Below are positions 44,475 to 60,724 of a stretch of DNA of 64,000 nt, in pieces. The translations under genes and the position numbers were made by a program. The stretch is from Octopus sinensis (lineage: Eukaryota): NCBI RefSeq assembly GCF_006345805.1, contig NC_043008.1, forward strand, positions 806,001 to 870,000. Direction: 5' to 3'. Under the pieces are notes generated by a model. It searched no databases, was not told the origin of the DNA, and was given only the letters and a program-made list of their open reading frames with translations. Each line of letters begins with the position of its first letter. Within the stretch, counting starts at the first letter, position 1.

Positions 44475-45037
44475 GAGTAGTACCTGTATTTCAAAGGGCC
44501 AGCCTTGTCACATTCTGTGTCACGATAAATACCCCTGACATCTACGTTAATGGTATCTGTGTCTGTGGCGAGCTGGCAGAAGCGTTAGCGCGCCGGGCGA
44601 AATGCTGAGCGGTATTTCGTCTGCCGTTACGTTGTGAGTTCAAATCCCGCCGAGGTCGACTTTGCCTTTCATCCTTTCGGGGTCGATTAAATAAGTACCA
44701 GTTACGCACTGGGGGTCGATATAGTCGACTTAATACCTATGTCTGTCCTTGTTTGTCCCCTCTGTGTTTAGCCCCTTGTGGGTAGTAAAGAAATAGGTAT
44801 TTCATCTGTCTCTACGTTCTGAGCTTAAGTACCTTTTACGCACTGGGGTCGATGTAATCGACTTAAGACCTATGCCTGTCCTTGTTTGTCTCCTCTATGT
44901 TTAACCCCTTGTGGGTAATAAAGAATAGGTATCTGTGTCTGTGGAGTACTCAGCCATTGGTACGTTAATTTCACGAGCAGGCTGTTCCGTTTATTGGATC
45001 AACCGGATCTCTCTTCGTCATAACCGGCAGAATGCCA
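44475..45037 (+). mobile_element. SINE family C 3' half interrupted by a SINE family A long-tail dimer (about 44569-44927)
   Basis: 17 bp target-site duplication ggtatctgtgtctgtgg at 44552-44568 and 44928-44944. Confidence 0.9.
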
Positions 45038-45764
45038 GTTTCATATATACATACATATATTTATATATATACACGCACATACATACACTCACATATACAT
45101 ATTCATATACATACACAGATATACGCGCACATAGGCACACATATAAATAAGCTTAATATATTATACTAATCGGGTAGAAGAAAATATCAAATTAGAGGAA
45201 ACATGTTCAACCGGACACAATTTTGTTTCTGCTAAACTGGTTTCATATAACGAGGCACAAACAGCACCATTTTTAGCCGAAAATATATGCGGATAATTCA
45301 AATTTACCCGATTATACAGACACTGCAGCAAATATTTCACTCGTAAATATTTGGAAATTTAAATACTTTAAAGTTTTCAAAGAATTCTAAATGCTTCTCA
45401 CCTGTTTTGTATTATCAAGAATACATACGATAAGCATAAAATTTGCATTTCTTTTATTTACTTCCGGTTGACTGCGGTTATGAACGTCTGTCTATGACCA
45501 GAGTCACATTTCAGAAATACAATTGTATCCCGGTATGACACACGTATGTTCTAATTCAATACATGTGCGTCGATTTCTCTCTCTCTCTCTCTTTTTTAAA
45601 TTGAGTGAATCGACTTGACAATATATCTCTCTCTGAAACCTCTGTATGAAACACACTTTTGCTTTTCTGTTTACGTACGCATTCCTGATTTAATATATGT
45701 ATATATATATATATATATATATATATATATATATATATATATATCTATATATATATATATATAT

Positions 45765-45965
45765 AAGGTAGGGAAAATAGTACTCGATTACCGAAGTTAG
45801 AGTAGTGCGCATTCTTATTAAAGCTAAAAAAAAAACATCATAAAACTTATTATTCAGAGTTTCACGTTCCCGTTCGTCGTACAGTCTTGATCACAACTGT
45901 CCAACGATCGGGAACGTGAAACTCAGAGTAACAGTTCTTGTGGTGTTTTTGCAGCTTTAATAAAA
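45765..45965. mobile_element. Inverted-duplicated short element, each arm with a hammerhead-like motif (consensus core CCGACGA)
   Basis: Arms 45815-45885 and 45896-45963; right arm reads aactgt CCAACGA tcg ggaa cgt GAAA CTC A GAG TA acagtt. Confidence 0.8.
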
Positions 45966-58431: not shown

Positions 58432-58708
58432 TTCTATTCTATCTATCTATCTATCTATCTATCTATCTATCTATCTATCTATCTATCTATCTATCTATCT
58501 ATCTATCTTTCTATCTATCTATCTATCTATCTATCTATCTATCTATCTATCTATCTATCTATCTATCTATCTATCTATCTTTCTATCTATCTATCTATCT
58601 ATCTATCTATCTATCTATCTATCTATCTATCTATCTATCTATCTATCTATCTATCTATCTATCTATCTATCTATCTATCTATCTATCTATCTATCTATCT
58701 ATCTATCT
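58432..58708. repeat. (ATCT)n microsatellite, 5' flank of the Tx1 insertion
   Basis: Direct inspection. Confidence 0.95.
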
Positions 58709-60347
58709 GGAGGCAGTCCTGAGAGCGGCTGGTTTCGGTCCCGTCTTCCGCGGCTGGATAGCTGCCTTGTACAGAGGCATCCGTTCGGTAATTCGCGTAA
58801 ATGGACATCTATCGAGACCTTTCGACATTGCACGTTCGGTCCGTCAGGGATGCCCCCTCTCGGCGCTTCTATACGTATTGACTCTTGAGCCACTACTGCG
58901 GAAGCTGGCGACTCTAAGGGGCATCCCGCGAGAATTGGGATGCGGGACGAGCATGTCTGCATACGCGGACGACGTCACCGTCATAGTGTCTAGCCACGAG
59001 CACATCGAGCTGGTCGGCGAGACACTGAAAAACTACGAAGCGGTGACAGGAGCGAAAATCAACCGGGAAAAGTCAGTGGGCTTGCGACTAGGCACCTGGA
59101 GAAGCAAGCCCATGCCGTCCACCAGCGCCTCCGTCGTGGGACGCTGGACCGACGGCCCGGTTGAGTTGCTCGGGGTCTGGTTTGGTCCGGACCTCCAAGT
59201 GGAGAAGAACTGGAACGAGATAACGAGTAGGGTGGTCACTCTCGCCCGGCAATGGGCCGAGAGGAAACTGTCCCTAAAAGGTCGAGCGGAGGTGGCGAAC
59301 ACGTACATCGCGTCCGTTATCTACTACCGCCTGACCGTCGTACCTTGTCCCGACCCTACCATCACCAAACTACAACGCATTCTCTTTCGCTTCTTGTGGA
59401 AAGGATGCGTCCCGATGGTCAGGCGATCCATTTGCTGTCAACACCCGTTAAAAGGAGGGCTGGGCATGCCGTGGTTGATGATGCGCAGATACGCGCTGAG
59501 ACTGCGACATCTCTGGCTCTATGTAGACGACGGTGAACAGGTGTGGTCGCCGTTTGTGAGGCACGCTTTCCCGCAGCTCGTCTCCATGACCGAACTGCAG
59601 TCGTGGATCAAAAAGAGGCCGAGGAAGGGCGAATGGCACCGCGAGTGTCGCGTTGCTCTCAAGCAACTCTGCCGTCCTGGGTCGACCTTAAGTAACTTCA
59701 ACACAACCAAAGCATTCTATAGGGGTTTAGTGGAGGGGAGGTACGACGACGAGCTCGGGGCGAACCTGGACGTCGACGAGGAGTACCTGACCCGCCTGTT
59801 CAGGACGACTTTCGGGCCAGGGCCCATGGACAACTTCCAGAGATCCCTGACCTGGCAGTGCTACCGAGAAGCGCTACCCGTTCGGGATAAGCTCTACAGA
59901 CACGGCTCGAGAAACACGGGGCCGACCTGCCCGAGATGCGGTCAGAGCGACGAAACCGTTCTGCACGCACTCGTTCAGTGTCCAACAATTTCCGACCTGT
60001 GGGCTTATGTCGAACAACTGCTGTCACGTGTGGGACGAGTCGGTTTATCAGCTGAGTCTATCGTCAATATTGTCACGCCTTCTTCCTTCAAACGGGAAGG
60101 AAGAGCTATTTTCATCATCCTTGTGGCTATGGCGAAAGAATGTATCTGGTGGACGCGTCTGAAAGGATTGGAGACAAACACTTTCCTCTCTGGTCAATCT
60201 CTCATCAACTTCTTCAAGTACCACTTGAAAAGGAAAGTGAGAGTAGAGAGGCAAGTTTTGTCTAGCGAATGTTTTAAAAAAAGATGGGTGAATGTAGCAA
60301 GAATGGCACGTATGAATGACGAAGCCACCTTGAGCATAATCCTATGA
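58707..60347 (+). CDS. 5'-truncated but uninterrupted ORF2 of a Tx1/L1-clade LINE (RT C-half plus zf-RVT)
   Basis: Open frame from LEAVLRAAGFGP through SVRQGCPLS, AYADDVT, GAKINREKS, LSLKGRAEVAN, KGGLGMP and CPRCGQSDETVLHALVQCP; GC-rich relative to the host; no native start. Confidence 0.93.
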   Translation: MEAVLRAAGFGPVFRGWIAALYRGIRSVIRVNGHLSRPFDIARSVRQGCPLSALLYVLTLEPLLRKLATLRGIPRELGCGTSMSAYADDVTVIVSSHEHIELVGETLKNYEAVTGAKINREKSVGLRLGTWRSKPMPSTSASVVGRWTDGPVELLGVWFGPDLQVEKNWNEITSRVVTLARQWAERKLSLKGRAEVANTYIASVIYYRLTVVPCPDPTITKLQRILFRFLWKGCVPMVRRSICCQHPLKGGLGMPWLMMRRYALRLRHLWLYVDDGEQVWSPFVRHAFPQLVSMTELQSWIKKRPRKGEWHRECRVALKQLCRPGSTLSNFNTTKAFYRGLVEGRYDDELGANLDVDEEYLTRLFRTTFGPGPMDNFQRSLTWQCYREALPVRDKLYRHGSRNTGPTCPRCGQSDETVLHALVQCPTISDLWAYVEQLLSRVGRVGLSAESIVNIVTPSSFKREGRAIFIILVAMAKECIWWTRLKGLETNTFLSGQSLINFFKYHLKRKVRVERQVLSSECFKKRWVNVARMARMNDEATLSIIL

Positions 60348-60724
60348 ACCCAGAAATTGGAAACAGAGATTTGCTTATTTGCAAAAAAAAAAAAAAAAAA
60401 AAGTAATATAAAATGTGACTTCATTGACCGAGGTTACCGTGGTCTTTTCCGTAGGCTTTTCTTTCCACGGGTAAACCTCACCTGTCCTCCCCTTTACACT
60501 TCATATTGACATTTCTGTGATAACGATCCCTATTGATCAATTTTTTTCCTCTCCCCCCTTTTTTTAACCCCCCCCTTTTTTGTCCTCTTTCTCTCCTTTT
60601 ACGATCCCTTTTGATCGAAACTACCCCCTTTCCTTTTTTTTTTTTTTTTAAACCTTCAAAAGAAAAGCTCTACCTTGTAATTTTTTCTATCTGTGTGCAG
60701 CCCTGTGTGGCTAATAAAGAAACA
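58707..60724 (+). mobile_element. Tx1-clade LINE insertion including 3' UTR
   Basis: 3' UTR has a stem gaggttaccgtgg/ccacgggtaaacctc (about 60429-60479) and ends agccctgtgtggctaataaagaaaca, after which (ATCT)-type repeats resume. Confidence 0.9.

Follow-up and report, generated by a model that had tools for sequence, protein, structure and literature searches.

A published survey of tail sharing between short interspersed elements (SINEs) and long interspersed elements (LINEs) lists 58 stringent pairs, mostly with CR1 and RTE LINEs (PMC3747384); three of these, all plant or algal, involve the L1 clade, which is described as the exception in this respect (PMC3472496, PMC3747384). Among L1-clade cases are maize ZmSINE2/3 with LINE1-1_ZM and Chlamydomonas SINEX-3 with L1-1_CR (PMC3472496). 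For bivalve SINEs the partners named are CR1-Zenon, CR1, L2 and Nimb (PMC11481361, PMC4824008), and for SINEU-1 of crocodilians no LINE with its 3' end was found (PMC4494074). Here a long-tailed SINE and the L1/Tx1-type LINEs of Octopus sinensis are compared, starting from a 64,000-nucleotide stretch (contig NC_043008.1, positions 806,001 to 870,000 of the forward strand; termed here the window, in whose own coordinates positions are given) that contains both. Abundant tRNA-derived octopus SINEs, OR1, OR2 and OK, were reportedly described by Ohshima and Okada in 1994; the long-tail SINE may be one of these.

The analysis makes it probable that the long tail of this SINE is the conserved 3' end of a radiation of L1/Tx1-type LINEs within the same genome and that an ORF2 protein (that is, the product of the second open reading frame, ORF) from this radiation copies the SINE, the best candidate being the LINE family termed here H, or a close relative of it, rather than family A, to which the LINE in the window belongs.

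The tail shared by SINE and LINEs

A first-pass annotation of the window had matched the 3' end of its LINE (60690-60722) to the SINE's long tail (44761-44793), and the match was reproduced: 27 of 33 nt agree without gaps, and the alignment reaches about 50 nt once one gap is allowed. When the LINE's 3' untranslated region (375 nt) was dinucleotide-shuffled 1,000 times, the best 33-mer match per shuffle averaged 16.7, with a maximum of 22, and 27 was reached by none. Beyond the window, a profile that was made from 12 LINE ends, without any SINE, detects 169 SINE tails at E<0.01 within a SINE-enriched set of loci totalling 1.07 Mb. When compared with 15 Tx1-type ends, the long-tail consensus yields z scores of 3.0-17.5, with 14 of the 15 scores equalled by no more than 1 in 500 shuffles (four ends, L205, L078, L169 and L219, are without a confirmed Tx1 ORF upstream; three of these were checked and none was found); when compared with six non-Tx1 ends (RTE, four Dong/R4-like and one CR1-like), it yields z of at most 2.0. 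The L1/Tx1-type origin proposed for the tail is thus upheld, no better non-Tx1 match having been found among the six ends tested. It is scarcely credible that short pyrimidine- and A-rich ends merely resemble each other by chance, or that SINE fragments happen to lie at LINE ends: the match is indeed short and the hairpins weak, but this explanation has to contend with the shuffle controls, with a SINE-free LINE profile that finds SINE tails, with the occurrence of the motif at the true termini of full-length LINEs that have target-site duplications, and with its graded variation across the phylogeny. At the clade level, the match is real and, as far as sequence comparison goes, well supported; that the clade is Tx1, rather than the L1 clade at large, is suggested by the architecture, by the choice of targets and by a single automatically assigned protein name.

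The SINE is short (about 230 nt), non-coding and high-copy, with duplications found in 75 copies. In the matched copy, on the plus strand like the window features below unless stated otherwise, head and body, delimited from sequence, span 44567..44729 and include an A-box-like motif (44574-44585) and a B-box-like motif (44636-44647), both picked by eye against the consensus for RNA polymerase III (Pol III); neither Rfam nor ARAGORN finds a tRNA match in the head. Between the boxes lies a GGTAT (44611-44615) that serves as a self-target. The long tail (44730..44795) consists of a front half resembling LINE families I and K and of 28 terminal nt resembling family H, with a predicted 4-bp hairpin followed by an A-rich end.

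Both the SINE and the LINE end had been said to form a stem-loop. Both hairpins do occur in the minimum-energy folds; neither, however, is stabler than those of shuffled sequences (z -0.5 and 0.0). Most ends have a predicted hairpin, which clearly exceeds shuffles in 4 of 16 ends and modestly does so in family H (5 of 200), and the stem sequences ahead of the A-rich end differ strongly between families.

The annotation also pointed to the same head and body joined to another tail, and such copies are indeed seen in the window, as at 2768..2986 (minus strand, with a 16-nt duplication) and 4305..4523. At least two types of short tail exist (34 and 16 copies). The description 'unrelated' suits one of them, whose best score against 177 ends was reached by 14 of 300 query shuffles; the other appears, by the same comparison, to resemble weakly the end of LINE family C (2 of 300), and several of its copies also precede ATT repeats. 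Of the 7 and 5 non-SINE matches in 1.4 Mb, none proved to be a LINE bearing a short tail.

The LINE radiation and the candidate partner

DNA, protein, motif and Pfam zf-RVT searches of the genome (2.72 Gb in 13,516 contigs) revealed at least ten LINE families, named A-L, with 50-68% protein identity to A and with an ORF2 that combines an APE endonuclease, a reverse transcriptase (RT) and a C-terminal zinc motif. The best solved structure for this ORF2 is L1 ORF2p (E 1e-67, versus 7e-24 for R2); one relative, at 36% identity, bears the automatic name 'transposon TX1 149 kDa protein', and the closest named relative comes from the octopod Argonauta (63% identity). In a tree that has a long branch and contains no reference L1 or Tx1 panel, all 22 rows of the genome and the Argonauta protein form one clade (100/100), within which families B, D, E, F, G, H, I, J, K and L fall into a 17-row clade (97/96), with A and C outside. 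The families have a common 3' layout, a motif of roughly 45-65 nt in which a pyrimidine-rich core is followed by a short hairpin and an A-rich end without poly-A. The window's LINE (58709..60724) is a 5'-truncated family A copy with RVT_1 and zf-RVT domains, the open RT and zf-RVT part of which (545 amino acids) spans 58710-60347; its conserved 3' motif (about 60675-60724) likewise is without poly-A, and its target is a microsatellite, (TATC)n on the 5' side (58436..58708) and (TATC)n/(TGTC)n on the 3' side (60725..61043).

Which family's end the SINE carries depends on the part of the tail considered. Family H (L355, L359, L362) is identical to the SINE over the last 28 nt, hairpin and terminus included, whereas families I and K match exactly over 29 and 26 nt, respectively, of the tail's front half but differ in their hairpins; the change from the I/K-like to the H-like half falls in the core common to all families. 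The terminus is the same in the SINE, in H and in B. Families B, C, D, E and G were considered as tail donors and set aside owing to lower scores. Duplications are 13-19 bp long in 60 of 75 SINE copies, 16-20 bp in 8 of 13 family B copies, and 16, 20 and 16 bp in three of four family H copies. (The SINE locus sets are biased toward young copies, because many loci were picked by the exact tail pattern.) In target habit, families B and H are varied, whereas C is found at (ATT)n, K at one site of another repeat, and A at a (TATC)n-type repeat in 30 of 30 loci, a context in which 1 of 153 SINE copies ends.

It was the window's own LINE that had been put forward as the partner, and this family probably is not: it is confined to (TATC)n, it agrees with the SINE at 22 of the 28 terminal nt, compared with 28 for H, with different last bases, and it lies outside the best-matching clade. 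Family A or its older subfamilies could nevertheless serve if the RNA's own 3' flank set the target, so that one enzyme would handle both (TATC)n and GGTAT. The 27/33 match in the window, and the fact that A was the commonest family among the first 30 motif matches, speak for this; the mismatched terminus, a strict microsatellite habit that is not the SINE's, and a position outside the H/I/K clade make it distinctly unlikely.

The preference for H or a close relative must itself be set against several observations that weigh against it. An older family A subfamily matches the SINE over 38 of 42 nt ungapped, and whole-tail scores are alike for H, I and old A (67-69, with old A at 68); hence the families are ranked on their termini, on the geometry of the duplications and on target habit. 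In the SINE the hairpin is weak (z -0.5 and -1.0, not above shuffles), and a fixed-register count found no covariation, the registers of the MAFFT alignment differing. Finally, no LINE possessing both halves of the tail occurs among 238 non-SINE ends in 1.99 Mb. The tail may thus be a mosaic that arose through template switching, or else a family with both halves may have been missed.

The latter possibility, in which an unseen H/I/K-clade LINE bears the complete tail, acts as both donor and partner, and has an endonuclease cutting between R-N-Y and GGTAT, would turn the mosaic into a sampling gap or an ancestral state. We give it appreciable, though minority, weight: H and I/K belong to sister clades (97/96), so that both halves could have been together in an ancestor or a sister; further families kept emerging with each search; and O. 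vulgaris has 80 L1-Tx1 families (PMC13282606). It is opposed by the 0 of 238 ends just mentioned and, weakly, by a pattern search for LINEs sharing exactly the front half of the SINE's tail, in which the 100 matches listed of 2,192 were all SINE-variant-like, the pattern being blind to I and K as well. A separate A-type pattern with SINE-like letters gave 10 matches, which are family A variants where readable.

A further explanation is that the motif is a clade-wide signal accepted by the enzymes of several families, in which case there would be no single partner and the tail would have been retouched by repeated template switches. The layout common to all families despite very different stems fits this, as does the presence of the motif on an element with ORF1 only; the 28-nt terminal identity with one family suggests family-level stringency instead, and the hairpin sequences are sharply different between families, so this explanation appears rather doubtful, short of improbable.

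The ORF1-only element, about 1.7 kb long (L461:5400-6501, L320:1-895), was seen in one copy, inserted in a long-tail SINE at its A box; the element is flanked by a short duplication of its own, and a further, outer duplication surrounds the host SINE. Other features of the radiation may be recorded here. Inside (TATC)n, family A occurs as head-to-tail stacks whose units share one truncation (L007, L012, L015, L025, L029). Naturally intact copies exist for H, K and A, with open frames of 1,128-1,137 amino acids seen in the radiation. Family K (L411-L418, L430), which has an intact 1,137-amino-acid frame and, in L411, a 20-bp duplication, is followed in 9 of 9 loci by one and the same sequence, which resembles the head of another SINE. 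LINEs of families B, E and G often end just 5' of hammerhead-ribozyme-like motifs (L085, L086, L088; by eye L082, L087, L338), with sub-threshold Rfam hammerhead matches in three of six such loci (E 9e-6 to 3e-3); the targets may be Penelope-type repeats. The sequence that follows a family G-like copy, from L371:2223 onward, resembles the start of U1 small nuclear RNA (snRNA), and family L (L372-L379) has one recurring target that resembles tRNA-array or snRNA-type repeats. Among the Dong/R4-like LINEs, several families have ends in (AAT)n and are stacked in the same arrays (L213, L241, L242).

Target choice, self-insertion and arrays

A 34-nt pattern from the tail has 10,696 exact matches in the genome (control 0), and a count of 44 long-tail units over 484 kb, made up of the window and 42 evenly chosen stretches, extrapolates to roughly a few hundred thousand copies. 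Directly beyond 76 of 226 SINE ends lies the head's GGTAT site, and arrays of two or three units inside one shared duplication occur. Because the units share one duplication, such arrays appear to have moved as units, with the final tail serving as the start.

The window provides examples. The matched copy is followed by a second unit (44796..44927) that begins from the internal GGTAT site, has an internal deletion and ends in its own long tail (44863-44927); both units lie, at 44552-44944, within a single 17-nt duplication identified by sequence and duplication search, the 5' copy of which (44552..44568) begins with GGTAT and the 3' copy of which is at 44928..44944. A three-unit array with long, long and short tails (6200..6740) lies within one 10-nt duplication (6188-6197, 6741-6750). 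On the minus strand, a long-tail copy at 36362..36620 runs on into the beginning of a further unit, at the internal GGTAT site, and another long-tail copy occupies 7570..7778. The two-unit insertion is hosted by a copy, on the minus strand at about 44477-45035, of a second, longer SINE family, other copies of which are at 54370-54775, 16586-16964, 55849-56147 and 38691-38806; the window also contains an RTE-like RT fragment (about 19400-20700, minus strand).

In one SINE subfamily, the duplication starts with G, G, T, A and T in 31, 28, 30, 25 and 25 of 33 copies. The target class varies with subfamily (G-R-T-A in 42 of 60 versus 13 of 48 copies, p 1.5e-5), and the two commonest defined classes correspond to two sites in the SINE's own head. 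That subfamilies differ in this way counts against a single unseen family's endonuclease as the explanation; the several target classes and subfamilies favour a signal read by several families' enzymes. Seventeen duplications differ in their first five bases between the two copies, nine of them being of the GGTAT class; as sorted by eye, it is the 3' copy that is nearer to GGTAT in 7 of these 9, the 5' copy in 1, and 1 is neutral, which agrees with what templating of those bases by read-through RNA would give.

These findings lend themselves to the following scheme. The SINE would be transcribed by Pol III from its head; the ORF2 protein would recognise the hairpin and A-rich end; target-primed reverse transcription would follow; and bases read through past the tail would help to choose, or to template, the first bases of the target. 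Such a role for read-through would account both for self-insertion at the head's GGTAT and for arrays. In its fullest form, the scheme takes the tail to be a chimera, derived from two living Tx1-type families by a crossover in their shared core, and couples it to a landing site that is inherited in RNA by way of the parent's flank, with homing into the SINE's own head and arrays travelling as units. This is offered tentatively, as something we regard as possible yet on the whole doubtful; were it true, target choice across the LINE radiation could pass via 3' flanks rather than via the endonuclease.

Other aspects of the data pull the opposite way. The 7:1 discordance is small and post hoc (one-sided p about 0.035). 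Upstream of the duplication there is a bias, with a purine at -3 in 29 of 33 copies and a pyrimidine at -1 in 26 of 33, which points to an endonuclease contribution and also favours an unseen family cutting between R-N-Y and GGTAT. Among the sampled copies, family H was seen neither at a GGTAT site nor in the SINE's head, and no ORF2-bearing LINE in the sample lies at the SINE's GGTAT site.

In one subfamily, the one most tied to the GGTAT target, the tail's first bases (44731-44739) are exactly reverse-complementary, over 9 bp, to its final bases taken together with the GGTAT read-through (44794-44802). Long-range pairing between the two is predicted, and was set aside since 22 of 200 shuffles fold equally well.

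Comparison with described systems

The literature search turned up no octopus SINE described as having a Tx1 tail; Repbase, SINEBase, subscription papers and figure alignments lay outside it and may hold one. If the proposed partnership is true, it identifies the machinery that spreads a major part of the octopus genome, an animal SINE of roughly 10^5 copies, and implies stringent RNA recognition within an animal L1-type lineage. Moreover, at least ten families that share one motif, with different stems and targets and with intact ORF2 copies, make up a natural panel for comparing the roles of the endonuclease and of the RNA 3' end in target choice.

Like the stringent pairs surveyed previously, the octopus SINE has a body, a LINE-derived tail with a predicted stem-loop, and tail exchange on one body; those pairs share a tRNA-type head, whereas the head here shows only A- and B-box-like motifs by eye, and, unlike them, the proposed partner is L1/Tx1-type, the A-rich end has neither poly-A nor terminal repeats, and the two halves of the tail match different families (PMC3747384). 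With the maize and Chlamydomonas pairs it has in common an L1-clade LINE whose 3' end is conserved, is predicted to be structured and is shared by the SINE; it differs from these (the algal pair ends in poly-A) in being an animal case and in belonging to a radiation of target-preferring families (PMC3472496). The tRNA SINEs of bivalve molluscs have tails of 35-61 nt at 72-95% identity to LINE ends and show mosaic evolution, as the octopus tail may; in their case a Tx1 partner goes unnamed, with 0 occurrences in the main texts (PMC11481361, PMC4824008). The ORF1-only element recalls the half-L1 elements, HAL1 (named in PMC5786205), in having the same 3' motif as the LINEs, and departs from them in sitting, in the one copy seen, in the SINE's A box. 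In the crocodilian SINEU/Tx1-Mar system, too, Tx1 was proposed as the partner, and that system likewise combines a preference for repeats as targets, tandem insertions, and Tx1 elements within microsatellites; SINEU elements, however, have snRNA heads and poly-A, and their link to Tx1-Mar comes from shared targets and 5' ends (PMC4494074), whereas in the octopus the link is the 3' tail itself.

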